Assembly (NCBI GenBank): GCA_039589275.1
Contig: JBDHHP010000012.1
Coordinates: 2,573-66,572 of the forward strand
Length of the DNA stretch: 64,000 nucleotides
From: Gemmatimonadota bacterium
Lineage (GTDB): Bacteria; Gemmatimonadota; Gemmatimonadetes; Gemmatimonadales; GWC2-71-9
Reading direction: 5' to 3'
Part shown: positions 19,254 to 54,332 of the stretch, piece by piece
Position numbering within the stretch: position 1 is the stretch's first letter
Layout of the letters: every line of letters starts with the position of its first letter
Notes under the pieces: generated by a model
Databases searched by the model: none
Seen by the model: only the letters and a program-made list of their open reading frames with translations
Told to the model about the DNA's origin: nothing
Translations under genes and position numbers: made by a program

Positions 19254-19306
19254 GTTTTTCCAGCGCTACGTCGTAGTTTTACTGACTGGCGTGCCTCCCC
19301 GCCCGC

Positions 19307-19780: not shown

Positions 19781-19799
19781 CGCCAAGACTCGGGCCTGT

Positions 19800-20570: not shown

Positions 20571-20886
20571 CTTCGCGCTCGCTGATCTGCTTGATTGCGC
20601 GGGGGACCTTGTAGAACTGCGGGTGCCTATAGACCTTGTCGGCAGTTGGCCCGAAGAACGACGGATTGTCGTCGGGAGTCGACGCCACGATGTGCTGCGA
20701 TTGCACCACCCAGATACTCGTGGCTTTGCCACGCCGCGCATATACGTCGCGAGCGTTCTGCAGCGCCATCTCGCCGTCTGGGGCGTGGAGGCTGCCGGCG
20801 TGTTCGTGGGGCGCGCCGGTCTTCTCCTGCACGAAGACCTCCCAAATGGGCCATTGGTTGTCCGAGCCGGCTTGGTCTTGCTGCAT
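20560..20886 (-). CDS. paaB: 1,2-phenylacetyl-CoA epoxidase subunit B
   Basis: WPIWEVFVQEKTGAPHEHAGSLHAPDGEMALQNARDVYARR...KVYRHPQFY matches PaaB. Start at ATG 20886. Confidence 0.88.
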   Translation of the reverse strand: MQQDQAGSDNQWPIWEVFVQEKTGAPHEHAGSLHAPDGEMALQNARDVYARRGKATSIWVVQSQHIVASTPDDNPSFFGPTADKVYRHPQFYKVPRAIKQISEREGEI

Positions 20887-30034: not shown

Positions 30035-30373
30035 ACCCACATTGGATGATGCAAATGTGACCGTGTCCGCACTAGTCATCGGTCCGCGCCGGTGCCGAGT
30101 GGCAAGCAGTAGTGATTGTACCAACGACGTTTCTGCCTGAAACCACTCCGGGACACTCGCCGTAGTATCTCTCAACCTGGTTCTTCAATCCCACCCTCCC
30201 AAGATATGAGGAGGCTGGAGTCCTGGCGCATGTCTCTCGACAACGCTGGCGTGGATTCGGCAAATTGCTGCTCAGCGTCCCGGCACACCGGAGCTTAAGG
30301 TGTGTATCACCGAGACGAGACTAACCGAACCAGCGAGTTTCCCGACATCAGGGACCGCAGCCGTCGCGGCCAC

Positions 30374-33019
30374 ATGGCTGCGCGCAGGTGTCAGCGCGTG
30401 ATTGACCTACACCAGCGATTGAGGTCGACGCTGTCCGACCGCTATGTCATCGAGCGCGAGCTTGGCAGCGGTGGCATGGCCGTTGTCTATCTCGCCCAGG
30501 ATCTCAAGCACCATCGTCAGGTGGCTATCAAGGTCTTGCGGCCAGAGGTGGCCGGGGTGATCGGCGCAGCGAGATTCCTGCGCGAGATCCAGATTGCTGC
30601 GCAACTGACCCACCCGCGGGTTGTTCCCCTGTATGACTCTGGTCGGGTCGATGGACTGCTGTACTATGTGATGCCCTTCATTGATGGGGAGTCGCTGCGC
30701 AGTCGATTGAACGGGGACGGGCCACTTCCGCTGGAGGAGGCGCTCGACATCACTCTGGCCGTTGCAGCGGCGCTTTCGAAAGCACACGAACACAACATCA
30801 TTCATCGCGACATCAAGCCGGAGAACATCCTGTTCTCCGGCGGAGAAGTTGTAGTGGCTGACTTCGGCATTGCCCGCGCAATCAGTGCCGCTGGCGGCGA
30901 AGCGGTGAGTCAGTCCGACATACCCATCGGCACGGTTGGGTACATGAGTCCCGAGCAGGCGATGGGAAGCCGGGATCTGGATGGCCGGACCGATCTCTAC
31001 AGTCTGGCCTGTGTGCTCTATGAGATGGTGGTGGGCAAGCCGCCGGGTCTCTGGTTCGATGAGATCAGGGCCGAGGTGATCGGAGCGGGACGGAAACCGG
31101 AGTGGCAGCGGACACTAGAGGGGAGACTCCCTGAGACCGAGACAGCGGCGCTCGTGAAGGCGCTGTCGCTCTACCCCTGGGACAGGCATGAGACGGTGGA
31201 TCAGTTCGCACTTGCCCTGAAGGCGGGTGTGAGGCAGTCAGGTGTTGGGCCGGCCGTGAGCCGGCAGAGTCGCAGGTTCTCCACCGGTGTGCTGGCGGGA
31301 GCGGCGATGGCGGTGCTGCTCATCGGTGGCGGATTGGGGATGTGGATCAAGGGAGCCGACGCCGCCGCAAGCGAGCAACCGAGGGTAGCGGTGATGTCGT
31401 TTTCTGACAGGAGCCAGGCGGCCGATCAGTACCTGGCGGACGGAGTGGCGCAGGCCATTCGCAATCGGCTTGCAGGGCTGTCGGGCCTCTCGGTCATCGC
31501 CTTCTACGGATCCGACGAGTATCAGGTAACAGGAAAGACCATCTCAGACATAGGTGAAGAACTCGGTGCGGAATTCTTGTTGAGGGGTACCGTCCAGCAG
31601 GGAATTCGACCGGATGGGATTGATGTCGTGCGTGTTAACTCGGAGTTGGTCCGGGTCAGGAACGCGACACTCCTCTGGGCTGACTCGTACGAGGTACCCC
31701 TGTCCGGAATACTCAAACTGCAGGCGAGCATCGCCGAAGAAATTGCCCAGGCGTTGGACGTTGCCGTCTTGGGACCGGAACGCCAGATGCTTGCAGCGGT
31801 TCCGACGGATAGTCCGAGTGCGTGGGCGCGCTATGTCCAGGGAGCGCACTTCTATCAACGTAGCTCGATGCTGGACGACAACAGGCGGGCTCTCGCTCTC
31901 TTCGAGCAAGCCGTGGGAATCGACTCCACGTTTGCGCTGGCTTGGGCCTTTATCGCGACCGCGCACGCCGCGGTCTATGCCACGGGCGGGGCCACGCCGG
32001 TACATCTCGAGCTGGCTCAGGAGGCCGCAGACCGGGCCTTGAGCCTGGAGCCGGGTCTTCCTGCTGGCGTTCTGGCCCAGGTGATGATCCACTTCGCGCG
32101 ACGAGAGTTCGAAGCGGCCCGCGACCTGGCCGTCGAGGCGCTCCAAGGCAGGCCCAACGACTACGACATGCTCTACATATTGGCGCATAATCAGTTGAGG
32201 CTGGGGAACTGGGGAGAGTCGATCGCCGCGTTCAGCGCGGCAGCAGAGCTGAACCCGCGCCGCCGCCCACCAGTGGTGATGCTGGCTCAAGCTCACCTTC
32301 GCTTGGGGGACCACGACAAGGCCGAACGACTTCTAGACCAAGCGGTCCGGCTCGGTCCTGACATGGCAGATGCGTGGGCCCACAAGGCCTGGCTTGCGCT
32401 GATTCGCGAGGGAGACGTTGCGGCTGCCGAGCAAATACTGCGCGAAGCTGCCAATCTTTGTAGCCTGACGGACGTGATCCGGCAGCTATTGTTGCTTGAG
32501 CCGGTCCAGCCGATGATGGCCCTGGTCGACGGCGAGATCCGTGGCGCTCTGTTCGAGCTGCCGCGCAACGTAATCGGCGCAGTGCCTGAGTCGTACTACT
32601 TATCGCGCGCCGTTGCTCATGAGGCAATCGGCCAGCGGCAGGCGGCGCTTGCCTACTACGATTCGCTGCGGGTGATCGCTGAAGAGCACTTGGAGTCTGA
32701 ACCGGACTATGCGTTATGGCACGGACTGCGTGGCAGGGCGCTTGCGGGTCTGGGGCAAATGGAGGCGGCCGTCGCGGAAGGCGTTGTGGCTGCAGAGCTC
32801 AGCAGCTTGGCGCAAGACGCCTGGGACGGGACCGACGTACTTGGTCTACTGGCTCAGATCTACGTATATGCGGGTGATTACGAGGCGGCGGTTGACCGGT
32901 TAGAGACGCTGGTCAGGGTACCGTCCCGGTATTCAAATCAGTGGCTCCGGCTACATCCGAGTTGGGCACCCCTGAGGGACCACCCTCGTTTCCAACGATT
33001 GGTGGGCGGTGGGCGATAA
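30374..33019 (+). CDS. Ser/Thr protein kinase with TM helix, periplasmic TolB-N/CsgG-like module and TPR repeats
   Basis: Hanks motifs GSGGMAVVY, AIKVL, HRDIKPENIL, DFGIA, GTVGYMSPE. TM helix GVLAGAAMAVLLIGGGLGMWI. The C-terminal half is TPR-like. Confidence 0.9.
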   Translation: MAARRCQRVIDLHQRLRSTLSDRYVIERELGSGGMAVVYLAQDLKHHRQVAIKVLRPEVAGVIGAARFLREIQIAAQLTHPRVVPLYDSGRVDGLLYYVMPFIDGESLRSRLNGDGPLPLEEALDITLAVAAALSKAHEHNIIHRDIKPENILFSGGEVVVADFGIARAISAAGGEAVSQSDIPIGTVGYMSPEQAMGSRDLDGRTDLYSLACVLYEMVVGKPPGLWFDEIRAEVIGAGRKPEWQRTLEGRLPETETAALVKALSLYPWDRHETVDQFALALKAGVRQSGVGPAVSRQSRRFSTGVLAGAAMAVLLIGGGLGMWIKGADAAASEQPRVAVMSFSDRSQAADQYLADGVAQAIRNRLAGLSGLSVIAFYGSDEYQVTGKTISDIGEELGAEFLLRGTVQQGIRPDGIDVVRVNSELVRVRNATLLWADSYEVPLSGILKLQASIAEEIAQALDVAVLGPERQMLAAVPTDSPSAWARYVQGAHFYQRSSMLDDNRRALALFEQAVGIDSTFALAWAFIATAHAAVYATGGATPVHLELAQEAADRALSLEPGLPAGVLAQVMIHFARREFEAARDLAVEALQGRPNDYDMLYILAHNQLRLGNWGESIAAFSAAAELNPRRRPPVVMLAQAHLRLGDHDKAERLLDQAVRLGPDMADAWAHKAWLALIREGDVAAAEQILREAANLCSLTDVIRQLLLLEPVQPMMALVDGEIRGALFELPRNVIGAVPESYYLSRAVAHEAIGQRQAALAYYDSLRVIAEEHLESEPDYALWHGLRGRALAGLGQMEAAVAEGVVAAELSSLAQDAWDGTDVLGLLAQIYVYAGDYEAAVDRLETLVRVPSRYSNQWLRLHPSWAPLRDHPRFQRLVGGGR

Positions 33020-36176: not shown

Positions 36177-37673
36177 ATGAGGTTTGAGCGGAAGCTGCTC
36201 TGGAGCATCACGGCCCTGGCAGTGGTCGGAGTGGTGGGAGCGTGTGACGACGAAGATGATGATGGATTTATCGTCGAGCCGGAGGACGATCCGCCCACCA
36301 TTCAGTTGGCTGCCCCGAATGGAGGCGAAGCCATCCAGCCGGGTGCCGATGTCGAGATCTCTTGGACCGCGAGCGACGACAACCAGGTCGTCGGTGTGGA
36401 TCTCTACTACGTCGTTGGGGGAAACGAGGCCGCCATTGCGACGGACGTTACCGGCTCCAGCTATACGTGGACTGTTCCGAACACGAACGTCTTCGGTGTC
36501 ACTGTCAAGGCCGTTGCTTCGGACGATGCGGCACAGACCGGCGAAGATGCTAGTGATGCGGTATTTGCTATCATTGGACACTCGATGCGGGGCTACGTGG
36601 GGAGTCAGACCTGTCGCAACTGCCACGTGGAATACCACAATGACATGCTGGCCTCGGGTCATCCCTACAAGCTGAACAAGGTAGTGAATGGGCAGCCACC
36701 CACCTATCCGAGCAGCTCGGTTCCCACACCTCCACCAGGAGCTTCGCGCGACGCGTGGAGCGACGTCGCGTATGTCATTGGGGGATACGGTTGGAAAGCA
36801 CGCTTCATCACGGCCGATTCCGGCTGGATAATGACCGACGCGATGGACTTAGTGAACGTGCAGTACAACCTACCGCGCGCCGACATCGGAGGTGGGCTCG
36901 CTGCCGAGTGGGTTTCGTACCACTCGACCGACACGGAACGCAAACCCTATGACTGCGGTAGTTGCCATACGACGGGTTGGCAGAGTTTCGCAGATAACGG
37001 TGGGGTGAATCAGGATGGTCTCGCAGGCATTCTTGGCACTTGGGAGGAGACGGGCATTACATGTGAGGAGTGTCACGAACCTGGTGCGGATCACGTGGCC
37101 AGCCAATCTGCGTCTGACATGACTGTTGACAACAGCTCCGCGCTGTGTGGTAGTTGCCATATACGCGGTGATGCAGCGACGATCCCCGCCAGTGGCGGCT
37201 TCATCCGCCACCACGAGCAATACAATGAACTGTTGGCCGGAGCGCACACAGGTGGCAGCATGGATGTCGGATGCAACGATTGCCACGATCCGCACGTTGG
37301 TGTGTTGTATGGCAACGACGTAGCGGGCGGCATAGTGGCTACGTGCGAGAGCTGCCATCCGGATCAGGTGGCGAACAACAGCCACAACAATCTGCCGACC
37401 TGCATCGACTGCCACATGCCGAGGGCAACCAAATCGGCAAGGGCGAATCACAGATTTGAGGGTGACGTTCGCACGCACCTGTTCGCCATAAGCACCGACA
37501 CCACGGCGAACATGTTTAATGCGGATACAACGTTCGTCGATAAAGGGTACGTGACCCTCGATTTCGCATGTTACTCATGCCACACCGATCCGGTTACCCT
37601 GGAGGGCGGCGGGTTCACCGAGCAGAGCTTGACGGCATTGGCGACCGAGGCCGACGGCATCCACACTCCCTGA
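36177..37673 (+). CDS. Octahaem c-type cytochrome lipoprotein with N-terminal acidic linker and Ig-like domain
   Basis: AAAGGAG lies upstream of ATG 36177. Lipobox VVGAC. Eight CxxCH motifs (CRNCH, CGSCH, CEECH, CGSCH, CNDCH, CESCH, CIDCH, CYSCH). Confidence 0.9.
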   Translation: MRFERKLLWSITALAVVGVVGACDDEDDDGFIVEPEDDPPTIQLAAPNGGEAIQPGADVEISWTASDDNQVVGVDLYYVVGGNEAAIATDVTGSSYTWTVPNTNVFGVTVKAVASDDAAQTGEDASDAVFAIIGHSMRGYVGSQTCRNCHVEYHNDMLASGHPYKLNKVVNGQPPTYPSSSVPTPPPGASRDAWSDVAYVIGGYGWKARFITADSGWIMTDAMDLVNVQYNLPRADIGGGLAAEWVSYHSTDTERKPYDCGSCHTTGWQSFADNGGVNQDGLAGILGTWEETGITCEECHEPGADHVASQSASDMTVDNSSALCGSCHIRGDAATIPASGGFIRHHEQYNELLAGAHTGGSMDVGCNDCHDPHVGVLYGNDVAGGIVATCESCHPDQVANNSHNNLPTCIDCHMPRATKSARANHRFEGDVRTHLFAISTDTTANMFNADTTFVDKGYVTLDFACYSCHTDPVTLEGGGFTEQSLTALATEADGIHTP

Positions 37674-37717
37674 ACCAGGATCCAGGTTCTTGCCGGCGTC
37701 GATGGTGTTCCATAACC

Positions 37718-37750
37718 AGGGCGACCCTCACTTGGGGTCGCCCTCCTATT
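37718..37750 (+). terminator. Rho-independent-type hairpin after the octahaem gene
   Basis: AGGGCGACCC (37718-37727) pairs with GGGTCGCCCT (37735-37744), 7-nt loop, followed by CCTATTT. Confidence 0.5.
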
Positions 37751-37768
37751 TCACGTACGAATGATCCC

Positions 37769-38566
37769 ATGCTGCGACACGCTTCACGTTGTGGCGCGCC
37801 CGCCCTAGCCTTTCTGCTCCTGCTATCGGCGTGCACTCAGCGGATTGAATCCAGTCGGACGGAAGAGAGAAACGGCCTTGTCTGCCAGACTAGCTCCATT
37901 GAGCCATTCACGGGGGTTGTCTACTCGCCGTTCGAGGCCTCGGGCCAGGACTCAGCTACAGTTTCTTATCGCGACGGATCGAGGCACGGGCCCTCTCGCC
38001 GGTACTCGAGGAATGGTAAGGACCTGAGCCTAACCAACTACGTGCGCGGTGAGAGGGAAGGGGAGAGTGTTGAGTGGTTCGAAGACGGTCAGGTGAGGCG
38101 CAGTGAGGAGTTCGTCGCAGGTCGCAGCGAGGGAACGTTGCGCGAGTGGGCGGCGGACGGGCAGCTGCTCAGGGAGCAGGGCATGAGCGGTGGCAAGCCA
38201 CACGGCCTTTCACGTGTCTGGTTCCCCGGAGGCGCAAAGAAGCGAGAGGCCAGGTATCGGGACGGCGCCCTACAGGGGCAATTCGTGGAATGGTACGAAA
38301 ACGGTCGGAAGAAGGTCGAGCGTTCGTATCGCGGTGGATTTCTGGATGGGTCGGTAGCTGAGTGGTACGAGTCGGGCGCAAGACGAAGCGAAGCACGCTG
38401 GGAGTCAGGAGAGCCGGACGGCTCAATCACCGAGTGGTTCGAAAACGGTAACAAGCGCGTCGAAGGTTTCTATGAGAGCGGGGAGGCGGTGGAACTCAGG
38501 ATATGGGATGAGAAAGGCAACCCGGTGGCCTCCCCGAAGCACATGAGGCCGGGGCGGGGGACATGA
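37769..38566 (+). CDS. MORN-repeat (MORN_2/YwqK-type) lipoprotein
   Basis: Start at ATG 37769. Lipobox LLLSAC. Repeated G...EW(F/Y)E(N/D/S)G modules (VEWFEDGQ, REWAADGQ, VEWYENGR, AEWYESGA, TEWFENGN). Confidence 0.82.
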   Translation: MLRHASRCGAPALAFLLLLSACTQRIESSRTEERNGLVCQTSSIEPFTGVVYSPFEASGQDSATVSYRDGSRHGPSRRYSRNGKDLSLTNYVRGEREGESVEWFEDGQVRRSEEFVAGRSEGTLREWAADGQLLREQGMSGGKPHGLSRVWFPGGAKKREARYRDGALQGQFVEWYENGRKKVERSYRGGFLDGSVAEWYESGARRSEARWESGEPDGSITEWFENGNKRVEGFYESGEAVELRIWDEKGNPVASPKHMRPGRGT

Positions 38567-38729
38567 TTGCTCGCGCTGGCTAAACAGAGGCTGAAGAAGC
38601 CTTAAGGGAAAGGAGCACCACTTGCTCTCAACCTTCATAATTAGGATACTAGTGAAAGGGAGTACTCTCATTCGCTTGTCCTCGAGGTTGACCGTGCAGA
38701 CTCACTCGTTGCCTTCGCATGGCTTGCTC

Positions 38730-40196
38730 ATGGTTGCCCTGGCCTCGGTCGCGCTCGGCACGGCCTGTTCCAATGACGACATCGTCTATGACGACATGGA
38801 ACTATTCAATCCGCCGCCGGACGGGGGGTCGGCCTTCATGGGCTACTACGTGACGGAGGAGAAACAGACTGTTTGTGGCAACTGCCATGCTGACAAACAG
38901 GTCTCTTGGATTGAGACAGCGCACGCGGATGCGTGGGCCGGTCTCCAGAGTTCTGACCACGCAGAATCATTCTGCGAACCGTGCCACACCGTGAATGAGC
39001 TGGGTAACTCTACGACTGCCGCCAGCGGACACAATGTTGTGGCGGACCCCTCCTATCACGACGTACAATGTGAGTCGTGTCACGGCCCGGGGATCGACCA
39101 TCTGGGTGATCCGGCAAGAGCCAAGCCACTCGCGTCTATCGCGGCTGCCGAAGATGCATCGAATGGGTGCGGAGAGTGTCACAATGGGGAACACCATCCG
39201 TTCGTGGAACAGTGGGCGGAGTCTGCTCACGGTAACGTGGACTCCTATCCGCAGGGCCGGGATGACTGCAAGGAGTGTCATGAAGGGCAAACGGCTCTCG
39301 AGGTTCAGTTCGGCGTGACATCTGACAACGCCGAAAAGGCCAGCGGTGAGCTGATGGACATCACTTGCGCAGTCTGCCATGATCCGCACGGAGGTCCGTA
39401 TCCGAGCCAGCTTCGTGCACCTGTAGCTGCGGCAGACGAGAACAACCTTTGTGTCAAGTGCCACAACAACCGGGCGGCTCCGGAGGTCGCCTCCACTCGC
39501 GGCGCACACGCTGCTCAGGGACCACTGGTGTTCGGTGAAGGTGTGGGCTGGATACCTGCGGGGTTCGAGGCCCTGGACGGCCTCACGGGGGCCCATGGAA
39601 ACCCACAGGCCAATCCAGGACTCTGTGCCACGTGCCATGTGGCTCCTTTCGCAGTGACGCAGCCTGAGTTTTTCCAGAGCGTCGGGCACAGCTTCGAGGC
39701 GATTCCGTGTCTGGATGTGGACGGCATTCCTGAGCCGGGTCCCTGCAACAACGACGAACGCAGCTTCGTTGCGTGTACGGCCTGCCATGGCAGCGAGGCC
39801 AACTCGCAGGCGATTTATGAGGGCTTCATTGAGGAAATCGGGGAGCTGCTGGCCCAAATCTGGGTCGACTTGAATGGAGACGCACATATCGATCCCGCTC
39901 CCACAGACGCGGGATTGCTGGCCGAGGTCATTGCATCCGCGGGCGCGGGAGAGTTGGATGCGTCTGACTCGGTGATCACGTATGCCGAGGGCGTGCTCTT
40001 CAACGCGCAGTTGGCAGCAACCGATGAAACGCCGCGGTTCTGGGATACGCATGTTGTGGTTGCGCCTGACGACACCGTGAACATCACTGCGCATGCCGCC
40101 AGTGGGAACGGAGTGCACAACCCACCTTTCTTGGAGGCATTGCTGAGGGCGTCGATCACTGCCGGTGCGGACCACTATGGGGTCGCGCCTAGATAG
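38730..40196 (+). CDS. Nonahaem c-type cytochrome, lipoprotein-like (start ambiguous within 38622-38730)
   Basis: Nine CxxCH motifs (CGNCH, CEPCH, CESCH, CGECH, CKECH, CAVCH, CVKCH, CATCH, CTACH). Lipobox-like LGTAC after MVALASVA. A ~130-aa haem-free C-terminal domain. Confidence 0.88.
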   Translation: MVALASVALGTACSNDDIVYDDMELFNPPPDGGSAFMGYYVTEEKQTVCGNCHADKQVSWIETAHADAWAGLQSSDHAESFCEPCHTVNELGNSTTAASGHNVVADPSYHDVQCESCHGPGIDHLGDPARAKPLASIAAAEDASNGCGECHNGEHHPFVEQWAESAHGNVDSYPQGRDDCKECHEGQTALEVQFGVTSDNAEKASGELMDITCAVCHDPHGGPYPSQLRAPVAAADENNLCVKCHNNRAAPEVASTRGAHAAQGPLVFGEGVGWIPAGFEALDGLTGAHGNPQANPGLCATCHVAPFAVTQPEFFQSVGHSFEAIPCLDVDGIPEPGPCNNDERSFVACTACHGSEANSQAIYEGFIEEIGELLAQIWVDLNGDAHIDPAPTDAGLLAEVIASAGAGELDASDSVITYAEGVLFNAQLAATDETPRFWDTHVVVAPDDTVNITAHAASGNGVHNPPFLEALLRASITAGADHYGVAPR

Positions 40197-40377
40197 TCGA
40201 ATCGACAGACGTGGGCGATCCGGTGCCGCCGAATAGAGGCACCGACGTAGGGCAGGGATTGAAGTAATCGGGCCCCGTCCGATAACCAGGCGGGGTCCTC
40301 AACGTAGAGGGCCTCGATGCTCACGGAGTCCGTCCAGCGCGAGACAAGGTCATGAAGCGGGTGTGCGCGAGGGTGCA

Positions 40378-43224
40378 ATGATGCGAGAGGTGCTGTACGT
40401 GGTCCTGGGGGCGCTTGGCGTGAGTGCTCTGGTGGGAGAGATCGCGTCTGCACAGGAGAGCGACACGTGTCTCATGTGCCATGGGAACGCGTCGATGTTC
40501 CAGGGTGCCCAGGCTGCACGAATGGTCATCTCCGAAGAGACGCATCTGGGCTCCGCACACGGTGCCGCGGGAATGCAGTGTACAACCTGCCACATGGGAC
40601 TGGAGTTTCCCCATCCGGAGGGTCGGTTCAAAGTCGAGTGTGGCATGTGCCACGCCGAGCAGGGCAGGCAACACGAGGAGTCGCTTCACGGTCAGGCCGC
40701 CGCCCGGGGCGATGTCCTTGCGCCGAGTTGTCAGGATTGCCACGGGACCCATGGCGTTCTGTCTCACACCAATCCCCGGTCGCGTACCCGTGTAATGAAC
40801 ATTCCCTTCCTGTGTGGTGAATGCCACAAGGAGGGGGCTCCAGTCGCTCGCTCTCGAAACATCCCTCAGGACTCAATCCTTACGCACTACTCTCAGTCCA
40901 TTCATGGTGAAGGGCTGTTCAGACAGGGACTTACTGTTACGGCCGTGTGTACCTCGTGTCACACTTCGCACTTCATCCTGCCACACACTGACGCGCGGTC
41001 CAGCATCCATCGAACCAAGGTCGCCATGACTTGCGAGCAGTGTCACGCTCAGATCGAGGAGGTGCACCGCCAGGTAATCGAGGGAAGGCTTTGGCGGGAG
41101 CGACCTGATGTGATACCCGTTTGTGTCGACTGCCATGCTCCTCACGAGGTGCGCGGAGTGCTCTACGAGGCGGGCGCCGCGAACCAGGACTGCTTCCGCT
41201 GCCACAGCGACCCTGGGCTGAGGGGTGTGGCAATGGGGGACACCGTCTCGCTCTATGTGGACGAGGAGGTGTACAACTCGACTGCGCACTCCGGTACAGC
41301 CTGCGCGCAGTGTCACACGGACGCTAGCTCGACGCTGACTCGACCCTGTGCTACCATCTCCTCGCCGGTTGACTGTGGTATCTGCCACGCGGAGCGGGTC
41401 GCGGAGCACAGCGCCAGCATACATGGCCGACTGGCGGCCGATGGCGATCCGGATGCGCCGACTTGCCTCGACTGTCACGGCCAGCACGGAATACAGAAGA
41501 GGGTGGTGCCGACTTCGCCCACCTTCCCTCGCAATGTCCCTGATCTGTGTGCGAACTGCCATCGACAAGGGGAAACAGCGGCGGCCCGGGTCGAATCGAA
41601 TCACCTGGCTAGGCGTCTAGACCAGACCGCCCTTGATCCGCTGGCAGCCCTGGAGGAGGCGCTGGAATCAGCGCCGCCCGTGGAGAGTTACGGGATGAGC
41701 ATCCACGGCAAGGGGCTTTACGAGAGCGGCCTCCTGGTCACTGCCACATGTCCGAGTTGCCATTTGGCGCACGCGGTGCAGCCGCGTACTGACCCCACAT
41801 CGTCGATTCACAGGTCCAACATCTCCGCCACCTGCGGCGCCTGTCATCACGGCATAGCCGAAGTGTTCATGACCAGTGTTCACTGGGTTGATGATGGAGA
41901 GAACGGCGACGACGGTGACAAGCCGACCTGCGAGAGCTGCCACACGTCACACAGTATCAGCCGCACCGACCTAGGCGACTTCCGCCTCACGATGATGAGT
42001 CAGTGTGGCAACTGCCACATCGAGGAAGCGGAGACCTTCTTCGACACATTCCATGGTAAGGTCTCGCGGCTAGGCGATGAGGGTGCCGCCAAATGCTACG
42101 ACTGCCATGGGACCCACGACATCCATCCGACTGCGGATCCGCGATCGCTTTTGAGCCGACGCAACGTGGTCGGCACCTGCGCCAAATGCCACCCCGGTGC
42201 CAACCGTAGATTCACCGGATATCTCACCCATGCCACGCACCACGACCCGGACAGGTATCCGTTCCTATTCTGGGCCTTCTGGGGCATGACTTCGCTCTTG
42301 GTGGGCACGTTGACCTTCGCCACCGTCCACACACTGGCATGGTTGTGGCGGCTATGGCGATCGCCAGGTGATTGGAGGAGACACAAGTCCCTGCCTGGTG
42401 AGGCGCTGTACAAGCGATTCACCACCTTCCAGCGCAGTCTTCACCTCGTGATGCTTCTGGCGTTCTTCACTCTGGCCATCACCGGAATGGTGCTGAAGTT
42501 CTCCTACGCGGTTTGGGCCCAGACTGTCTCATCGGTGCTCGGTGGGTTCACCACCACTGGGTTCCTCCACCGGTTAGGCGCGGTGGCATTGATCGTAGTG
42601 TTCGTTATCCACCTAGGCGACGCGTGGCGCCAGCGCAGGGAATCGGGTAAGAGATGGCTCCAATTCATCTTTGCCGAGAATTCGCTGATCTTCAACAAGA
42701 ACGATTTGAAGGAGCTTGGCGCCTCCTTGAAGTGGTTCTTGGGTAGGGGCCCTCGGCCCCTGTACGGGCGTTACACCTACTGGGAGAAGTTTGACTACTT
42801 CGCCGTTTTTTGGGGGATGATAGTGATCGGTTCGACGGGATTGGTGTTATGGTTCCCCGTGTTCTTCACGAATGTGATCCCGGGTTGGTGGGTGAACGTG
42901 GCTACCATCATACACAGCGACGAGGCGTTGCTGGCGGTGGGCTTCATCTTCACGGTCCACTTCTTCAATACCCACTTCCGGCCCGACAAATTTCCGATGG
43001 ATCCGGTGATCTTCACCGGCCGCGTGCCTGTCGAAGAACTCAAGGTCGACAAACCACGGGAGTACGCGGAACTGGTGAAGGACGGCACACTGGAGGAGCA
43101 CCTAGTGCACCCTTACCCGCGGAAGCTGGAGCTGTTTTTCAAGGTCTTCGGCTTTGCAGCACTGGGGGTTGGGCTGACGTTGATAGCCTTGATCCTGTAT
43201 GCTATGCTGTTTGGCTATAGATGA
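40378..43224 (+). CDS. 19-haem c-type cytochrome fused to a C-terminal b-type-cytochrome-like membrane domain (CbcL-like architecture)
   Basis: Signal peptide MMREVLYVVLGALGVSALVGEIASA. 19 CxxCH motifs counted. The C-terminal ~330 aa has 5-6 TM helices with conserved-looking His (ATVHTLAW, RSLHLVMLL, FLHRLGAVALIVVFVIHL, IIHSDEALLAVGFIFTVHFF). Confidence 0.9.
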   Translation: MMREVLYVVLGALGVSALVGEIASAQESDTCLMCHGNASMFQGAQAARMVISEETHLGSAHGAAGMQCTTCHMGLEFPHPEGRFKVECGMCHAEQGRQHEESLHGQAAARGDVLAPSCQDCHGTHGVLSHTNPRSRTRVMNIPFLCGECHKEGAPVARSRNIPQDSILTHYSQSIHGEGLFRQGLTVTAVCTSCHTSHFILPHTDARSSIHRTKVAMTCEQCHAQIEEVHRQVIEGRLWRERPDVIPVCVDCHAPHEVRGVLYEAGAANQDCFRCHSDPGLRGVAMGDTVSLYVDEEVYNSTAHSGTACAQCHTDASSTLTRPCATISSPVDCGICHAERVAEHSASIHGRLAADGDPDAPTCLDCHGQHGIQKRVVPTSPTFPRNVPDLCANCHRQGETAAARVESNHLARRLDQTALDPLAALEEALESAPPVESYGMSIHGKGLYESGLLVTATCPSCHLAHAVQPRTDPTSSIHRSNISATCGACHHGIAEVFMTSVHWVDDGENGDDGDKPTCESCHTSHSISRTDLGDFRLTMMSQCGNCHIEEAETFFDTFHGKVSRLGDEGAAKCYDCHGTHDIHPTADPRSLLSRRNVVGTCAKCHPGANRRFTGYLTHATHHDPDRYPFLFWAFWGMTSLLVGTLTFATVHTLAWLWRLWRSPGDWRRHKSLPGEALYKRFTTFQRSLHLVMLLAFFTLAITGMVLKFSYAVWAQTVSSVLGGFTTTGFLHRLGAVALIVVFVIHLGDAWRQRRESGKRWLQFIFAENSLIFNKNDLKELGASLKWFLGRGPRPLYGRYTYWEKFDYFAVFWGMIVIGSTGLVLWFPVFFTNVIPGWWVNVATIIHSDEALLAVGFIFTVHFFNTHFRPDKFPMDPVIFTGRVPVEELKVDKPREYAELVKDGTLEEHLVHPYPRKLELFFKVFGFAALGVGLTLIALILYAMLFGYR

Positions 43225-44813
43225 GTGTTAAGTTCGAGGGCCCCGGTGCCACCCGCCGGGCTACTGACCTACCGCGATCGCTTCAAATGCGGGGAGGCTT
43301 CATGAGGGCATCTAGGCTGGTTGTTACCTTGGCCGCGGGGGCTTTGGTGTGGGCAACACCGCTGTCCGGTCAAGGCTACCGCGTGCGGTTGGATGCACGG
43401 TATCAGGGTGTATCCTATCGCGGAGTCATGCTCGACAGCATCCCGATTGACGCAGCAGTGCTGAGCGGCGACGGATCTTACTTCACGTCTGACGGCTTCG
43501 CGGCAAATTGTCCGCAAGCTGCCGAGTACTGCACGTACTTCCGGTCGGGCCCCGAGTTGAGGGGTCATCCCATCGTTACCACCGTGGCTGCGGATGTCTG
43601 GGGCTTTGGTGTGCAGGGTCTGCGATTCAGCTCCAAGGCTCGTGTGGGCACCGACCTAGCCAGCGGGGACATTTGGCCCGGCGTAAATCCCGAGCTGCAG
43701 CTGCTGGAGGGGTTTCTGGAATACTCGGCGGGTCCGGTAGTCGCGCAGGCGGGCAGGACTCATGTCACGTCACGGCTCGGCTGGACTGGCTTTGATGGAG
43801 CCAAGGCCGAGGTCCGACCGTTGGGTCGCAAGCTGAAACTGCTTGGATACGGCGGTTGGGGCCTGGCGCGCGGCGTGGCGTTGCCCGTCACGAGCAGCGC
43901 CCTGAACCCGCTGGACGATCTCCAGCCTCGGGACCGTCAAATCATAGTGGGCGCCGGCGCCGGATGGGCGGTGACGGGCGTGTTCGGTCAGGCGGTTTGG
44001 CAGCGGGAGATAGATCCGGGTTCCGACGACCTGGTGTCCGACTACCTCAACTTCGATGTGGACTTCAGGCCATCCGACAACCTTAACGTTACAGGCGGGG
44101 CATACTACGATCTGGCGGCTGGCCTGTGGGGAACGGCGAACGCTCAGGCTACCTACATTGCCCCACGCGGCATGGGTCGGTTGACTCTGGGGGCGAGGCG
44201 ATATCGTCCGCGGTTCGACCTGTGGACCATTTGGGGTGCATTCAGCCCGGTGGCATACAACGCGGGATTCGGGTCTCTGTCGCTTTCTCCGGTGGGTGGA
44301 TTGGAGCTGCGAACGTCAGGAGAGATCTACGAGTTCGATGACGCTGAGGCGGACCGCCGCTTCACGCAGATCGAATCGGATGGGTGGCGTTGGACCCTCG
44401 GGGCAAGCTACAACGGGATGGAGGCTTGGCGGTTCCACAGCAACTACTGGGTAGACAGGGGACCGGGGTCCCGCTCCGTCGGAGTTGATGCACTGGCGAC
44501 TTTCATTCCGGTCGATGACTTGTACGTGACGGCTCAAGTCGAGCGGCTGGTCCGACCTCTCGAGTTTCGATTCAACGAAGCGGACGTTTGGTCGGCTGGC
44601 CTTCGGCTCGACTACGAGACAGCACAAGGGGTTCGCATCAACGCAGAGCTGCGTCGCTACGAGGAGGTCCGCGAGCGGCTGGATGCATCCTACGTGAATT
44701 GGGATCAGTGGCGCCTCAACCTAGGACTGTCCTTCGCGTTTGGAACAGACACGCGGGGAGGTGGTCTCCACCCGGCAATCCTCCGCATTCCGACGGGGAG
44801 GGGGATACGATGA
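43221..44813 (+). CDS. Predicted outer-membrane beta-barrel protein (porin-like partner of the cytochromes)
   Basis: ATG 43221 overlaps the upstream stop (ATGA). Internal signal peptide MRASRLVVTLAAGALVWATPLSGQG. Alternating hydrophobic, aromatic/Gly-rich strands throughout. Barrel-closing-like LNLGLSFAF lies near the C-terminus. Confidence 0.7.
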   Translation: MSVKFEGPGATRRATDLPRSLQMRGGFMRASRLVVTLAAGALVWATPLSGQGYRVRLDARYQGVSYRGVMLDSIPIDAAVLSGDGSYFTSDGFAANCPQAAEYCTYFRSGPELRGHPIVTTVAADVWGFGVQGLRFSSKARVGTDLASGDIWPGVNPELQLLEGFLEYSAGPVVAQAGRTHVTSRLGWTGFDGAKAEVRPLGRKLKLLGYGGWGLARGVALPVTSSALNPLDDLQPRDRQIIVGAGAGWAVTGVFGQAVWQREIDPGSDDLVSDYLNFDVDFRPSDNLNVTGGAYYDLAAGLWGTANAQATYIAPRGMGRLTLGARRYRPRFDLWTIWGAFSPVAYNAGFGSLSLSPVGGLELRTSGEIYEFDDAEADRRFTQIESDGWRWTLGASYNGMEAWRFHSNYWVDRGPGSRSVGVDALATFIPVDDLYVTAQVERLVRPLEFRFNEADVWSAGLRLDYETAQGVRINAELRRYEEVRERLDASYVNWDQWRLNLGLSFAFGTDTRGGGLHPAILRIPTGRGIR

Positions 44814-45724
44814 GATCGATCACTCTCTTGGCCCTTCCGGCCCTGGCCGCCGTGGCACTCGGCGCAGCGTGGGAGCCGGTGCGCTCCTCCAATTCGAGCA
44901 AGCAGTTCCCGCACGAAAAGCACATGGACCTGTTTCCATGCAGCGCATGTCACGGAGGACTGACCCAATCGGGTGGTGCGCCGTATCCGCAACCGACTTT
45001 TTGTGCCGCCTGCCACGACGGCAACATACAGGTAGAAATTGACTGGACTCCTCCGGAAGCCCGGCCGCAGTCCAACCCGCGCTTTGAGCACGCCACTCAC
45101 CTCGAGTTGGCAGGCAATGAGTGCTCGGACTGTCACGTTGTGACCGGAGAGCTGCCGGTTGCCGAACAATGCCGCGACTGCCATAGCCGGTCAGAATCGC
45201 TCAGTAACGCCTCGGTAGTCCACGGTACGGAGTTCCGTAACCGCCACGCTTCAGACGCGGCTGCTGCACCCGAGAATTGCGCATCGTGCCACCTGCGTGC
45301 CGACTGCCTCGACTGCCACCGCCCAGGTGCTGCGTCAGGGTCGCCAGGATACCATCCTGCGAACTTCCTTTCCGAACACCCGACAGCCGCATACTCTCGG
45401 TCACAGTCTTGCAGTGACTGCCACAACGTGCGTTCGTACTGCGCGGCGTGTCACGCTCAAGCTGGGCTCACTGCAGCAGGAGCCATAGGAGACGGGTATC
45501 ACGACGCCAAGCAGAACTTCGTCTTGGGCCACGGACAGGCCGCGCGGCAGAGTCTGGAGTCGTGTGTCGCGTGCCATTCGCAGGACGACTGCCTACGGTG
45601 CCATTCGGCGCTCACGGGACGGATCAACCCCCACGGACCGGGTTTCGACGCCGATGATCTGCGGGAAAGGACTCCGTCGATGTGTGCGGTGTGCCATGGA
45701 TCCACGATTCCAGGAGGCGGGTAA
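44810..45724 (+). CDS. Undecahaem c-type cytochrome (c3/c7-like repeats), secreted
   Basis: ATG 44810 overlaps the barrel-gene stop (ATGA). Signal peptide MRSITLLALPALAAVALGAA. 11 CxxCH motifs in 304 aa. Confidence 0.9.
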   Translation: MRSITLLALPALAAVALGAAWEPVRSSNSSKQFPHEKHMDLFPCSACHGGLTQSGGAPYPQPTFCAACHDGNIQVEIDWTPPEARPQSNPRFEHATHLELAGNECSDCHVVTGELPVAEQCRDCHSRSESLSNASVVHGTEFRNRHASDAAAAPENCASCHLRADCLDCHRPGAASGSPGYHPANFLSEHPTAAYSRSQSCSDCHNVRSYCAACHAQAGLTAAGAIGDGYHDAKQNFVLGHGQAARQSLESCVACHSQDDCLRCHSALTGRINPHGPGFDADDLRERTPSMCAVCHGSTIPGGG

Positions 45725-45760
45725 GTCGGCTTAAGGACCCGACGTTGTAGCGGTCCAAAG

Positions 45761-45778
45761 TGTCCTACAAATAGGACA
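45761..45778. promoter_or_regulatory. Perfect palindrome TGTCCTA-CAAA-TAGGACA upstream of the tetrahaem gene
   Basis: 7-bp arms with a 4-nt spacer, 212 nt upstream of ATG 45990 and 37 nt after the stop of the 11-haem gene. Confidence 0.25.
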
Positions 45779-45989
45779 ACCGGCCGGCCGGGTCGGGGCG
45801 AATTATGCCCATGGAGGGATCTCTAGGGGCCAAGTTCGGTACAAAACTGGCCGATTATCGCTTTGTCGTGCGACCTCCGGATCTCAGGTATGGTCTTTGA
45901 CCTTCCCTTTCGATGCGGTAACCGCTTGAGCGATGCGTGAAAAACAAGAGTGTTGCACCATATCAGCTACCGAACCTGGAGATTGAACT

Positions 45990-46403
45990 ATGAATAGTCG
46001 CCGTAACTTCGCCCTCGCTGGCGCCGTCGTGCTGGTGACTCTGTGGTCTACGCCGGTGCTGGCTCAGGGCCGGCCGAAGCCGACCAGCCACGACATCGCT
46101 GGGCGAGAACAGTGCTTGATGTGTCACCGGGCCGGTGCTATGGAACCGGTGCCCGACGCTCCTGCCGACCACGAGAATAGACCCAACGAGACATGCCAGT
46201 GGTGTCACGCACCGGACTCACCAATGCTGACGGGCGACGCGACCTCGATGCCCCACCCTAACGAGGGACGGGAGCAGTGCATGATGTGCCATAAGGCTGG
46301 CGCGATGGAGCCGGTGCCCGACGCGCCAGCGAGTCACGAAGGCAGGGACACCGCATTCTGCACGTTGTGCCACAAGCCCGCCGGCTCGGTAAGTCCCAAC
46401 TGA
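45990..46403 (+). CDS. Tetrahaem c-type cytochrome made of two NapB-like dihaem repeats
   Basis: Signal peptide MNSRRNFALAGAVVLVTLWSTPVLAQG. The module H..x.GREQC(L/M)MCH(R/K)AGAMEPVPDAPA.HE.R....C..CH occurs twice, 55 aa apart. Confidence 0.88.
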   Translation: MNSRRNFALAGAVVLVTLWSTPVLAQGRPKPTSHDIAGREQCLMCHRAGAMEPVPDAPADHENRPNETCQWCHAPDSPMLTGDATSMPHPNEGREQCMMCHKAGAMEPVPDAPASHEGRDTAFCTLCHKPAGSVSPN

Positions 46404-46486: not shown

Positions 46487-47104
46487 CTACGTCCCGAGTG
46501 GATGCCCCCGCTTGAACTGCACGTAGACCCAAGACATTGGGACTATGAGCACCCCGGCGGCGACGAGTGAGAGCGCGATAAAGACTGCCGCGAACAACTG
46601 CGACCGCGAGCTCCGCGCGGCCACCCGTACAAGTGCCGAGTCTTGGCGCGCTGTGAGTACGATCATTGCCGCGCGGCCCCTAATGCCCAGCTCCGGACCC
46701 CAACTCTCTGCATCGGCGGGTTGCCTCAGGTCTTCCAACACCTGACCGATCAGCCTTCGATCCAGGGAATTCGTAACCTGTTCCTGCAACTGAGCAAGCT
46801 GTCCCGACAACGCTATCTGAATACTGTCACGGATCCGGCCCTGCTCGGAGAACTGCTCGGGCGTGACCGCCATCTTACGCCACACTTCCAACGCCGCGTT
46901 GTAGGAGTGAATGGCTCTGATAGTGCGGCCGCCTTCCTCCACTGCGGCGCGTGATCTGCCGAGGTTTACGATGTGAATAACCCCGATCAGGATGGCCAGC
47001 AGTAGGGCGACCGCGGCAATTGTGAGGGCGATCCCCGGCCGAATTCCACCGGCCGCCTTGTAATCTTCCATCGCCAGCGCAAACGACGAGCGTGGTTGTG
47101 ACAT
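46487..47104 (-). CDS. Hypothetical membrane protein: two TM helices flanking a ~130-aa helical extracytoplasmic domain, no output domain
   Basis: 205 aa. TM helices at IALTIAAVALLLAILIGVIHIV and LFAAVFIALSLVAAGVLIVPM. Good GC3 bias. Confidence 0.55.
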   Translation of the reverse strand: MSQPRSSFALAMEDYKAAGGIRPGIALTIAAVALLLAILIGVIHIVNLGRSRAAVEEGGRTIRAIHSYNAALEVWRKMAVTPEQFSEQGRIRDSIQIALSGQLAQLQEQVTNSLDRRLIGQVLEDLRQPADAESWGPELGIRGRAAMIVLTARQDSALVRVAARSSRSQLFAAVFIALSLVAAGVLIVPMSWVYVQFKRGHPLGT

Positions 47105-47197: not shown

Positions 47198-47956
47198 TCA
47201 CGATCCACCGCTCACGGCCTGCTCCGCTTCAGACTTGAAGCTCGCGATGAGTCTACTGTGCACATCGTACTCCCAGCGCTGAGCCGAGATCTCGGTGTTG
47301 TACCGCTCCAGGAACTCCAGGTATCCGCGACTCACGAAGCTGTCGTCACCCGTCATTCGGCCGACCCTTTGTTGTAGCAGCGGTGCGAACAGGTGACTCG
47401 GAACGAGGGCCTCGATCGAATCGGCGCGATCGAGGATAGCTTGATGATCACCGGTTATCTGGTGCAACAGGCCGATGTGGAAATGCGCATCGGCATCCAG
47501 CCCGTCGAGCAAGCTGTACGCCCTCAGGGCCATCTGGCCTGAGAACGACGCTGTGGCCGAATCTCCGCCCTCGAAAGCCGTCATTGCCTGGTCAAAGAGG
47601 GCGTCTGCCTCTCCGCGCGGGGTAGCGGCAGCAGGCGTGACTCCCTGAGATGTGAAAGCCGCCGGAAGCGCAGTGGGCGGTGGTGAAGGCATGAGGGTTA
47701 CCGCGACTACTATGACTAGAACGATGGCGGCCAACGCCAATGCGATCCACGGAAGCTTAGAACTGAGAGCTGATCCCCCACCTAACTGGCGTGAACAGTT
47801 GTGGCAAAAGCGGGCACCAGGTTGAAGCTGAGCGCCGCAAGCGGGACAGGTGGCTCCCTTCAGGGGAGTCCCACAACTCGAGCAGAACTTTCCGCTGCCC
47901 GGTTGTCCGCAGTTGGAGCAGTAGCCCTGTTGCTTGCTCTTGGATTTGCCCGTCAT
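47198..47956 (-). CDS. Double zinc-ribbon / TM / TPR-like hypothetical protein
   Basis: Start at ATG 47956. Zinc-ribbon sequence YCSNCGQPGSGKFCSSCGTPLKGATCPACGAQLQPGARFCHNCS, followed by TM helix LPWIALALAAIVLVIVVAVTL. Confidence 0.7.
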   Translation of the reverse strand: MTGKSKSKQQGYCSNCGQPGSGKFCSSCGTPLKGATCPACGAQLQPGARFCHNCSRQLGGGSALSSKLPWIALALAAIVLVIVVAVTLMPSPPPTALPAAFTSQGVTPAAATPRGEADALFDQAMTAFEGGDSATASFSGQMALRAYSLLDGLDADAHFHIGLLHQITGDHQAILDRADSIEALVPSHLFAPLLQQRVGRMTGDDSFVSRGYLEFLERYNTEISAQRWEYDVHSRLIASFKSEAEQAVSGGS

Positions 47957-48161
47957 CTCCACTCCGTCGAGCTTTTCTGGACGGCTCTGTAATCGCTCCG
48001 TTGAACGAAGCAAACAAAGCATGAGATCTCCGTGAAGTCCAGACAAGCGGAAAGGCTGGCTTCGCGCAGCCGCGCGCCTTGCGATTGACGATAGACATCC
48101 GACGGGCGACGATTAGCTGAGATCGAAACACCCTCCGTTTGCTCTGAAGGTGGAACCTCTC

Positions 48162-54228: not shown

Positions 54229-54332
54229 AGGTACCTTAATCCTCAGATTGTCGGTTATTGGGGTCCAAAGAGCGACCTTTTTGGGGGCCCCGGAGTACTC
54301 TATATTCTAGGCGGACCACATGGAGACCACGT

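Follow-up and report, generated by a model that had tools for sequence, protein, structure and literature searches.

We analysed a 64-kb stretch of Gemmatimonadota DNA (the window, 64,000 nucleotides) in which seven co-oriented genes, here called g1 to g7 in their order along the DNA, encode five multihaem c-type cytochromes, a repeat lipoprotein and an outer-membrane β-barrel. On balance, we consider it probable that this region specifies a Gemmatimonadota porin–cytochrome conduit that connects the quinone pool of the inner membrane with the outside of the outer membrane. This reading follows from the density of haem motifs, the CbcL-type architecture of g4, the barrel fold of g5, the coupling of the g5 gene to a cytochrome gene, the resemblance of g1 to the cell-surface reductase OcwA, the lipobox kept in relatives of g3 and the presence of cytochrome c maturation (ccm) genes 8 kb away. 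The central idea of a first-pass annotation of this DNA, that an inner-membrane c/b quinol module is combined with a barrel and multihaem cytochromes, held up in our analysis; the arrangement is porin–cytochrome-like and is not that of the Mtr systems.

We counted CxxCH motifs by script and also scanned for CxxCK and CX3-4CH variants. The count gave 8 motifs in g1, 9 in g3, 19 in g4, 11 in g6 and 4 in g7, and the sum of 51 agrees exactly with the number given in the first-pass annotation. Given the composition of the window, 0.08 CxxCH motifs would be expected in the 2416 residues of these five open reading frames, and the count is therefore not a product of chance. The scan found no CxxCK or CX3-4CH motif in the open reading frames of the cluster. 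Outside the cluster, all six frames of the window together contain 5 CxxCH motifs, every one of them in a non-coding frame. The coordinates of the genes and of the features discussed below are collected in Table 1.

Table 1. Features of the window (positions are those of the window; aa, amino acids; nt, nucleotides).
Feature	Position	Strand	Description
Cluster g1–g7	36177-46403	+	seven co-oriented open reading frames, from the list of open reading frames
g1	36177-37673	+	498-aa lipoprotein-type precursor, 8 CxxCH
g1 putative anchor Cys23	36243-36245	+	lipobox VGAC; followed by DDEDDD
g1 Ig-like domain	36294-36488	+	Big_7 (Pfam)
g1 segment aligned with OcwA	36591-37187	+	residues 139-337
g2	37769-38566	+	lipoprotein of 265 aa with MORN-variant repeats; Cys22 in lipobox LSAC; 0 haem motifs
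g3	38622-40196	+	lipoprotein, 9 CxxCH; start at 38622, 38652, 38694 or 38730
g3 putative lipid-anchor Cys codon	38766-38768	+	followed by SNDD
g4	40378-43224	+	948-aa CbcL/MtrH/MtoC-type inner-membrane protein, 19 CxxCH
g4 putative signal peptide	40378-40452	+	
g4 c domain	~40468-42192	+	
g4 cytochrome b domain	42262-43209	+	six helices
Shine-Dalgarno-like GGGGAGG	43291-43297	+	4 nt before ATG 43302
g5	43302-44813	+	503-aa β-barrel, ~24 predicted strands; putative signal peptide MRASRLVVTLAAGALVWATPLSG, cleavage before QGYRV
g5 conserved loop	44205-44255	+	residues 302-318, RPRFDLWTIWGAFSPVA
g5 C-terminal tail	44766-44792	+	residues 489-497, LHPAILRIP
ATGA overlap of g5 and g6	44810-44813	+	g6 ATG overlaps g5 stop
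g6	44810-45724	+	304-aa secreted non-lipoprotein cytochrome, 11 CxxCH, 27.6 aa per haem
g7	45990-46403	+	137-aa secreted tetrahaem cytochrome, 4 CxxCH
Membrane protein	46487-47104	-	205 aa, no Pfam match; just past g7
Double-zinc-ribbon (DZR) membrane protein	47198-48046	-	282 aa; near g7
Metal-efflux-type island	29-10255		includes an outer-membrane efflux protein and a CusB/HlyD-type adaptor
P-type ATPase	29-1918		in efflux island
AcrB-family RND pump	4238-9895		in efflux island (adaptor–pump stretch)
P-II-like protein	9905-10255		in efflux island
Gene run	14092-20741	-	
PaaZ-like aldehyde dehydrogenase/MaoC fusion	14092-16149	-	first gene of the run (Pfam)
PAS-domain sensor	25365-26636	-	farther upstream than the kinase
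Ser/Thr protein kinase	30302-33019		905 aa, C-terminal TPR array; ends 3 kb before the cluster
ccmE	54258-54737		cytochrome c maturation, 8 kb downstream of the cluster
ccmF	54742-56787		cytochrome c maturation
ccmH	56780-57364		cytochrome c maturation
Zinc-ribbon membrane protein	57368-57811		small; after ccmH

The c domain of g4 packs its 19 haem motifs into ~585 residues (~31 residues per haem) and is followed by hydrophobic segments at residues 629-647, 688-706, 728-746, 808-826 and 926-944, with a weaker one at ~840-862. The C terminus passed the Ni_hydr_CYTB model of Pfam (31.4 bits; cut-off 30.1) and matched the FdnI model TIGR01583 with an E value of 6.7e-11, under the equivalog cut-off of that model. 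In 23 homologues with a mean identity of 68%, all 19 motifs are invariant, as are 19 further histidines of the c domain and, in the membrane domain, the candidate haem b ligands His651, His689, His731, His745, His846, His861 and His866. The invariant non-motif histidines of the c domain equal the haems in number (19 for 19), which fits bis-His electron-transfer haems and not catalytic ones; the membrane domain fits a dihaem cytochrome b. The domain match and the invariant histidines bear out the description of g4 in the first-pass annotation as a 19-CxxCH protein fused to a His-bearing polytopic membrane domain. g4 thus has the architecture of the CbcL/MtrH/MtoC family, in which proteins of 416-1034 amino acids carry 3-23 haems (Zhong and Shi, PMC6295460): a periplasmic c domain with 3-23 CX2CH stands at the N terminus, and about six transmembrane helices form a HydC/FdnI-type membrane domain with conserved histidines. 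We propose that g4 may serve both as a quinol:cytochrome oxidoreductase and as a periplasmic wire; more speculatively, its membrane anchor and its spacing of haems might allow it alone to bridge much of the periplasm. A sequence search of the PDB, with g4 whole or with its membrane domain alone, returned nothing usable.

The architecture of g4 is not new, as it was already catalogued in 2018. Table S2 of that study includes a Gemmatimonadetes protein of 951 amino acids that has six transmembrane helices and whose 19 motifs are spaced almost as in g4, and it lists 19-haem forms from Bacteroidetes, Ignavibacteria, Handelsmanbacteria and Syntrophaceae as well (PMC6295460). The earlier claim that the 19-haem fusion lies outside known models was therefore mistaken. 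The 2018 study sought only MtrB/MtoB-type barrels beside these fusion genes, and CbcL itself was still to be characterised at that time (PMC6295460). We also observed that the public call of g4 (locus L001, 7272-9923, corresponding to ~40573-43224 of the window) starts ~65 codons later than ours; the resulting 883-amino-acid protein lacks a signal peptide as well as the first of the haem motifs, and the 948-amino-acid form stands as a separate entry (P0121).

The gene that follows, g5, had been described as overlapping g4 through an ATGA at 43221-43224. This sequence is present in the DNA, and the open frame of g5 does begin at 43221. However, the homologues are ~500-505 amino acids long, the identical public protein is called from Met28 (43302) and a GGGGAGG precedes that codon, and for these reasons we place the start at 43302. 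The gap between g4 and g5 is therefore 77 nt, with no overlap, and the ATG at 43221 is very probably unused as a start. The second overlap claimed in the first-pass annotation, that of g5 and g6, is real.

We found no Pfam or NCBIfam family match for g5. An AlphaFold2 model built on a 44-sequence alignment is all-beta, with a predicted local distance difference test score (pLDDT) of 80 and a predicted template-modelling score (pTM) of 0.72. DSSP assigns 23 long strands to this model, of which the first spans 24 residues, and this suggests ~24 strands in total. All 50 listed matches in a Foldseek search against the PDB are outer-membrane barrels, and 397 matches reached E<=0.001. The top match is the 24-strand FimD usher (E 4e-10; template-modelling (TM) score 0.44-0.47; 7-9% identity); the matches also include porins such as chitoporin, OccK and AlgE, and MtrB (6r2q_B) stands at rank 16 (E 2e-8; TM score 0.40). 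Of the 44 family members, up to 16 weakly match generic outer-membrane protein families of Pfam (OMP_b-brl in 16 and Porin_4 in 7), and neither g5 nor any of the 44 matched the MtrB_PioB models (PF11854 and TIGR03509) at E<=1. With its putative signal peptide, its all-beta model and a last strand (...LSFAF) that precedes a conserved tail, g5 is, as judged by the predicted structure, an outer-membrane β-barrel outside the Mtr family, in agreement with the first-pass annotation and not the soluble or non-barrel protein that would have spoken against it.

Conservation in g5 is 0.62 outside the strands versus 0.61 within them, and the three best-conserved stretches are all loops, at residues 302-318, 419-426 and 188-213. 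The loop at 302-318 holds a short helix, and its motif RPxFDLWTIWGAFSPV is kept even in relatives that score ~250 bits. The C-terminal tail, disordered after the last strand, is highly conserved, the Cys70/Cys77 pair is nearly invariant and the AQ/GQ-GYR junction of the signal peptide is conserved in relatives. Conservation of loops to this degree is unlike that of diffusion porins and argues for a specific protein partner; the conserved loop, the tail and the cysteine pair are candidate sites of contact with a cytochrome.

The proposed partner is encoded by g6. This protein has no lipobox; it passed the model of the MtrC/MtrF pentahaem domain II/IV (PF22113) with 51.2 bits and matched the c7 and c3 domains of Pfam. 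All 11 motifs are invariant in 33 homologues, together with 10-11 further histidines (10 counted). This number approaches that of the haems and fits bis-His electron-transfer haems, not catalytic ones. A sequence search of the PDB with g6 returned nothing usable. We propose that g6 is a barrel-inserted wire, the functional counterpart of MtrA and OmaB. The small cytochrome g7, 265 nt past g6, has its own ribosome-binding site (GGAG) and contains an internal duplication of two near-identical 27-residue segments (GREQC[LM]MCH[RK]AGAMEPVPDAP[AS][DH]...), each of which opens a dihaem unit. Homologues of g7 lie near the barrel gene in ~20 loci, mostly those with the 19-haem fusion, and usually directly after the g6-like gene; from its sequence and position, g7 may act as a periplasmic shuttle or adaptor. 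None of the catalytic multihaem families NrfA, HAO, OTR and MccA scored above its cut-off among the cluster proteins. As there is also no CxxCK motif, we rejected the corresponding catalytic readings, and the catalytic role that the first-pass annotation had named as a counter-argument to its own proposal did not emerge.

Three lipoprotein genes precede this group. g1 passed PF22113 with 50.4 bits (cut-off 30), and its residues 139-337 align with residues 15-202 of OcwA (6I5B) with an E value of 1.5e-11 (46.9 bits); the alignment spans ~200 residues and takes in the first haem motifs, and the C-terminal half aligns weakly. The Ig-like domain of g1 (Big_7, E 1.8e-7) and the MORN repeats of g2 (MORN_2, E 8.7e-16) were both confirmed. 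g2 also matched an adhesin model, LIC20035, weakly (1e-9, far under the cut-off), and the public annotation likewise includes it as a gene. We found no homologue of g1 or g2 in the loci of other genomes among the 81 loci mapped (see below). Both may therefore be lineage-specific accessories, g1 as a surface cytochrome and g2 possibly as an adhesin or scaffold, and the seven genes do not form one conserved unit; the core is g4-g5-g6-g7. g3 carries Cytochrome_C554, Paired_CXXCH and c7 domains (Pfam) and matches OcwA (6.9e-6) and, weakly, cytochrome c554 (0.012). Its homologues, with 35-59% identity, occur in ~50 loci, typically on the 5' side of the cluster, and relatives in loci L015-L080 keep a canonical lipobox followed by C-T-[DTSN]-E-K-I-V-[FY]-R-D-R. 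g3 thus appears to represent a cytochrome c554/OcwA-related lipoprotein family that recurs beside these clusters. The signal and lipoprotein peptides predicted in the first-pass annotation are visible in the sequences, and the lipobox is conserved in the g3 relatives. The acidic residues at +3/+4 after the anchor cysteines of g1 and g3 recall the lipoprotein surface-export signal of Bacteroidota, a phylum that shares a superphylum with Gemmatimonadota; we regard this resemblance as a lead.

The barrel defines a large family, with more than 935 relatives at 90% clustering (529 clusters at 50%) and members in at least 268 GTDB species-representative genomes. The habitats sampled are soil and groundwater, sediments of the sea, and wastewater or reactors. 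We read the taxonomy of the best 80 barrel loci and mapped the seven proteins onto 81 loci, of which 79 were informative downstream of the barrel. All of the best 80 are from Gemmatimonadota metagenome-assembled genomes (MAGs), except one assigned to Vicinamibacterales. Wherever the contig runs on past the barrel (79/79 loci), a non-lipoprotein multihaem cytochrome directly follows it, and in 74 of these 79 the barrel stop and the cytochrome start overlap by 4 nt. The number of haems in this cytochrome varies, with 16 in 44 loci, 14 in 10 (these variants are ~395 amino acids long), 9 in 10, 11 in 5, 12 in 5, 7 in 3, and 15 and 18 in one locus each.

The gene upstream of the barrel is of one of three kinds, each of which appears to belong to an inner-membrane module of quinol type. 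It encodes a fusion of a 19-haem domain with cytochrome b in 13 loci, most of which also have a g7 homologue, and in 38 loci a protein that has 18 haems, helices at its N terminus and a weakly NapC/NirT-like first haem region. Among such membrane-anchored upstream proteins with 17-21 haems, the NapC/NirT-like N terminus exceeds the Pfam cut-off in the 21-haem form and is weak in the 18-haem form. In 21 loci the upstream protein is haem-free; where examined, it is a 283-amino-acid Ni_hydr_CYTB protein (2.7e-9) preceded by an 11-haem cytochrome, a pair that appears to be the g4 fusion in split form. Distant barrels (~250 bits) sit in the same kind of cytochrome–barrel–cytochrome triads with overlapping genes; for these relatives, which have a high G+C content, a cluster look-up returned 'hypothetical protein' or nothing. 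The locus mapping thus defines the conserved unit as an inner-membrane, quinol-side multihaem module, a barrel and a coupled cytochrome, and not as seven genes. In the window this module is g4-g5-g6-g7, and across loci a g3-type lipoprotein is usually near.

We also observed much larger cytochrome islands around the barrel in many relatives (loci L028, L030, L052, L013, L035, L064, L002 and L007), with more than 60 haem motifs in ~12 kb. These islands hold 21-haem NapC/NirT-like, 9-haem and 11-haem cytochrome genes, the last with a split cytochrome b, as well as petB-like genes; some add a small Rieske-like open reading frame before the petB-like gene and a second cytochrome b gene downstream. 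Two apparent barrel–cytochrome fusions (P0285 and P0270) were considered as Rosetta-stone evidence and rejected, as they look like frameshifted or read-through calls.

From these motifs, domains, folds, gene linkages and patterns of conservation, we propose the following locations and path of electrons. The dihaem cytochrome b anchor of g4, of FdnI/HydC/CbcL type, would exchange electrons with (mena)quinol in the inner membrane, and the electrons would pass along 19 bis-His c haems far into the periplasm. g5 would form a ~24-strand barrel in the outer membrane, and g6, its production translationally coupled 1:1 to that of the barrel, would lie inside it as an insulated 11-haem wire. The lipoproteins g3 and g1, the latter OcwA-like, would act as terminal redox partners at the cell surface, with g7 as a small periplasmic tetrahaem adaptor and the MORN protein g2 as a lineage-specific add-on. 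We weakly favour an outward flow, in which a sediment heterotroph would respire Fe(III) or Mn(IV) minerals, humics or partner cells, because the window contains genes of heterotrophic catabolism (the PaaZ-like enzyme, a 2-oxoacid dehydrogenase E1 and aminotransferases) and because g1 is OcwA-like.

Several observations weigh against the conduit as we propose it. The sequence is compatible with either direction of electron flow. OcwA relatives also reduce soluble substrates, which would allow a final step in the periplasm or with a dissolved compound. TM scores of 0.4-0.47 in Foldseek define the fold of g5 as a large outer-membrane barrel and nothing finer, and a profile of the g5 family found no match among PDB sequences even at E<=10, MtrB (6R2Q_B) included. 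The AlphaFold2 model of g6, built on a 33-sequence alignment, is too poor for an MtrA-like shape to be sought in it (pLDDT 53; pTM 0.37). The case for surface exposure of g1 and g3 consists of the lipobox and the acidic residues after the cysteine. A scan for promoters and terminators returned no more sites than in shuffled sequence; with intergenic gaps of 77-265 nt and no such pattern, transcription as one operon or as several would fit. Finally, every relative retrieved comes from a MAG.

The same hardware could run inward, to oxidise metals (Fe(II) or Mn(II)) or to take up electrons from reduced minerals, from cathodes or from partner cells. g4 would then reduce quinone, a role that has been proposed for MtoC in Fe(II) oxidisers, or would serve as a donor to periplasmic cytochromes or oxidases. 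CbcL/MtrH/MtoC homologues are found in Fe(III) reducers and Fe(II) oxidisers alike, with no sequence feature that separates them (PMC6295460), and the survey from which the MAGs came could not separate iron oxidation from reduction either (PMC11316326). Consistent with this direction, the clusters of many relatives adjoin petB-like cytochrome b genes, some after a small Rieske-like open reading frame, an association with bc-type genes like that reported for PCC4 in Fe(II)-oxidising bacteria (PMC5566968, PMC13264449). However, bc-type genes are absent from the 64-kb window, where the genes are heterotrophic and no carbon-fixation gene was seen (a small sample of the genome), and g1 is related to a terminal reductase. 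We regard inward flow as unlikely, though it is the alternative that we take most seriously.

A periplasmic respiratory or electron-storage network, in which nothing crosses the outer membrane, g5 is a substrate porin and the acceptors are nitrite, hydroxylamine, sulfur oxyanions or chelated metals, seems to us less likely still. The relation of OcwA-type cytochromes to NrfA/OTR-type reductases, and their reduction of soluble substrates in vitro (PMC6703420), point this way, as do the weak likeness of g3 to cytochrome c554 and HAO, the substrate porins among the fold matches and the lack of a sequence link between g5 and MtrB. Nevertheless, CxxCK motifs and above-threshold matches to NrfA, HAO, OTR or MccA are missing from the cluster, the histidine counts of g4 and g6 fit bis-His haems, ~24 strands exceed the 16-18 of specific porins and lipoprotein cytochromes accompany the cluster. 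Moreover, the near-universal coupling of the porin to a 7-18-haem cytochrome and the conserved loops are hard to square with a diffusion channel. The prominence of 24-strand FimD barrels among the fold matches raises a further alternative, namely that g5 is an usher-like device that secretes the downstream cytochrome or polymerises it into extracellular filaments or matrix. That cytochrome indeed has no lipobox, and its length varies with the number of haem repeats (7-18). Yet the 503 residues of g5 are essentially all barrel, with no room for the plug or the N- and C-terminal domains of an usher, no chaperone-like gene is conserved nearby and the FimD scores are those expected from strand number alone. 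We consider this device very improbable.

The surroundings of the conduit candidate were also analysed. The G+C content is uniform across the window and scans for tRNAs and Rfam families found none in it; nothing points to a recent insertion. Identical DNA stands in a contig of the marine Gemmatimonadota MAG GCA_039587895.1, and the isolate names of its nearest relatives are those used in a survey of Gemmatimonadota from marine sediments that appeared in 2024 (PMC11316326). At another locus (L072), a CcmF-like N terminus lies near the cluster. At least 13 further Gemmatimonadota loci, among them L002, L003, L010, L046, L051, L054 and L057, have a homologue of the DZR protein within a few kilobases before or after the cluster; this protein could be a regulator or mere conserved neighbourhood. 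The minus-strand run that opens with the PaaZ-like fusion looks, from this first gene, like phenylacetate or aromatic acyl-CoA catabolism.

Gemmatimonadota are among the most abundant phyla of soils and sediments and, to our knowledge, are not regarded as electroactive. If our reading is true, the invariant motifs YRPxFDLWTIW and LHPAILRIP of the barrel, combined with an overlapping cytochrome gene, would provide a marker for extracellular electron transfer in this phylum, and the attribution of iron, manganese and humic cycling in metagenomes would change for at least 268 species-level genomes. Pfam, NCBIfam and the Mtr hidden Markov models (HMMs) miss the barrel family, FeGenie and the Pcc HMMs appear to miss it too, and the source study recorded generic 'DFE_461-465 homologs' (PMC11316326). 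As a compact four-gene module, g4-g7 poses the question of whether a 19-haem membrane-anchored wire can replace soluble periplasmic shuttles, and it bears on the evolution of barrel–cytochrome pairs outside Proteobacteria and Desulfobacterota. A bolder version, possible but in our judgement doubtful, is a phylum-wide, largely vertical and shuttle-free conduit, in which an 18/19-haem quinol oxidoreductase spans the periplasm and docks on a new ~24-strand barrel whose loops grip a 7-18-haem insert, an independent third porin–cytochrome lineage beside Mtr and Pcc. Such a conduit would imply that Gemmatimonadota have a large unrecognised share in electron transfer with minerals, with humic substances or between species.

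Systems of this kind are known, whereas the barrel family is unnamed in databases and the cluster as a whole appears undescribed. A full-text literature search, with subscription-only papers outside its scope, found no description of the cluster or of the barrel family in Gemmatimonadota, so that the word 'undescribed' in the first-pass annotation holds for the barrel and the whole cluster but not for the g4 fusion. The order of a barrel followed by a non-lipoprotein cytochrome, which had been said to match no model, is that of Geobacter-type Pcc clusters (PMC4245776). With a Pcc-like gene order and a catalogued g4, the statement that the cluster 'does not match any' model was too strong. According to a 2026 karst study, new porin–cytochrome (PCC) variants are now common finds in MAGs, which tempers the surprise.

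The cluster as we read it shares its logic with MtrCAB, MtoAB and PioAB, namely a haem-dense wire sheathed by a barrel and a lipoprotein cytochrome at the surface, and a c/b fusion of MtrH/MtoC type stands in the barrel cluster of some species (PMC6295460). g1 and g6 also pass PF22113, and MtrB is among the structural matches of g5. By contrast, g5 has ~24 predicted strands versus 26 in MtrB, and its cytochrome gene comes after the barrel, not before it. The MtrA/DmsE model TIGR03508 did not match g6 and scored 48 bits with g3 and 68 bits with g4 (cut-off 192), and the MtrC/OmcA model TIGR03507 gave only a 16-bit match in g7; with no match to MtrB/PioB either, we rejected membership in the Mtr group. 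Reports of a true MtrCAB in this phylum are sporadic: one Gemmatimonadetes MAG has it, with a placement read as horizontal transfer (Baker et al., PMC8805035), and marine Gemmatimonadota MAGs are reported to contain three MtrABC operons as well as homologues of 'Cyc2 and DFE_461-465' identified by FeGenie (PMC11316326).

The putative, genome-predicted PCC3 and PCC4 systems of Fe(II)-oxidising Proteobacteria (He et al. 2017) likewise consist of a porin together with large multihaem cytochromes and an inner-membrane protein of dihaem b type, in some cases beside bc1-type genes (PMC5566968). However, that membrane protein is a separate ~300-residue protein with five helices and two WX3HX13H motifs (PMC5566968), whereas the domain found here is of six-helix FdnI/HydC type, fused or split, and g4 has one H-x13-H (His731/His745) and one H-x14-H (His846/His861) with no WX3H context. 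The porins of PCC3 have up to 42 strands, the median number of haems in its extracellular cytochromes is 34, and most PCC3/4 hosts are Proteobacteria (PMC5566968). In the DFE_448-451 and DFE_461-465 clusters of Desulfovibrio ferrophilus, periplasmic and extracellular cytochromes with 12-14 haems, for which a path across the outer membrane has been proposed, accompany an embedded non-haem repeat protein, NHL there and MORN here (PMC5815863). Those clusters have beta-propellers and no β-barrel, whereas the barrel here is invariant and the MORN protein is not conserved; on the grounds of the NHL beta-propellers and the missing barrel we rejected membership in DFE_0461-0465. OcwA, to which both g1 and, more weakly, g3 show sequence homology, is a nonahaem terminal reductase at the cell surface of Thermincola potens, where it completes the extracellular transfer of electrons (PMC6703420). 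Its host is Gram-positive and has no barrel, and g1 differs in its number of haems (8), its lipid anchor at the N terminus and its Ig-like domain.

No Pfam or NCBIfam model for OmbB, OmaB, ExtB/E/I or IALB_1838/1839 was among the matches obtained with the cluster proteins. The 2014 survey of Pcc systems by Shi et al. included no Gemmatimonadetes member; it described two-gene forms in Anaeromyxobacter and Kuenenia and periplasmic cytochromes with 5-14 haems, among them IALB_1838 of Ignavibacterium album, which has 400 amino acids and 14 haems (PMC4245776). Compared by description only, the Geobacter Pcc systems (OmbB-OmaB-OmcB and Ext) have, like the cluster here, a barrel gene followed by a non-lipoprotein multihaem cytochrome gene, together with lipoprotein multihaem cytochromes. 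The range of haems in the partner cytochrome is similar, although here it extends to 16-18. The g5 barrel has ~24 strands in 503 amino acids by AlphaFold2, as against 18-22 predicted strands there, a comparison across different prediction methods, and the lipoproteins here are OcwA/c554-like and lie upstream. Atypical CX3-15CH motifs are absent here. At the inner membrane, g4 has the architecture of CbcL, with 19 haems in place of 9, and the gene for this quinol module immediately precedes that of the barrel.

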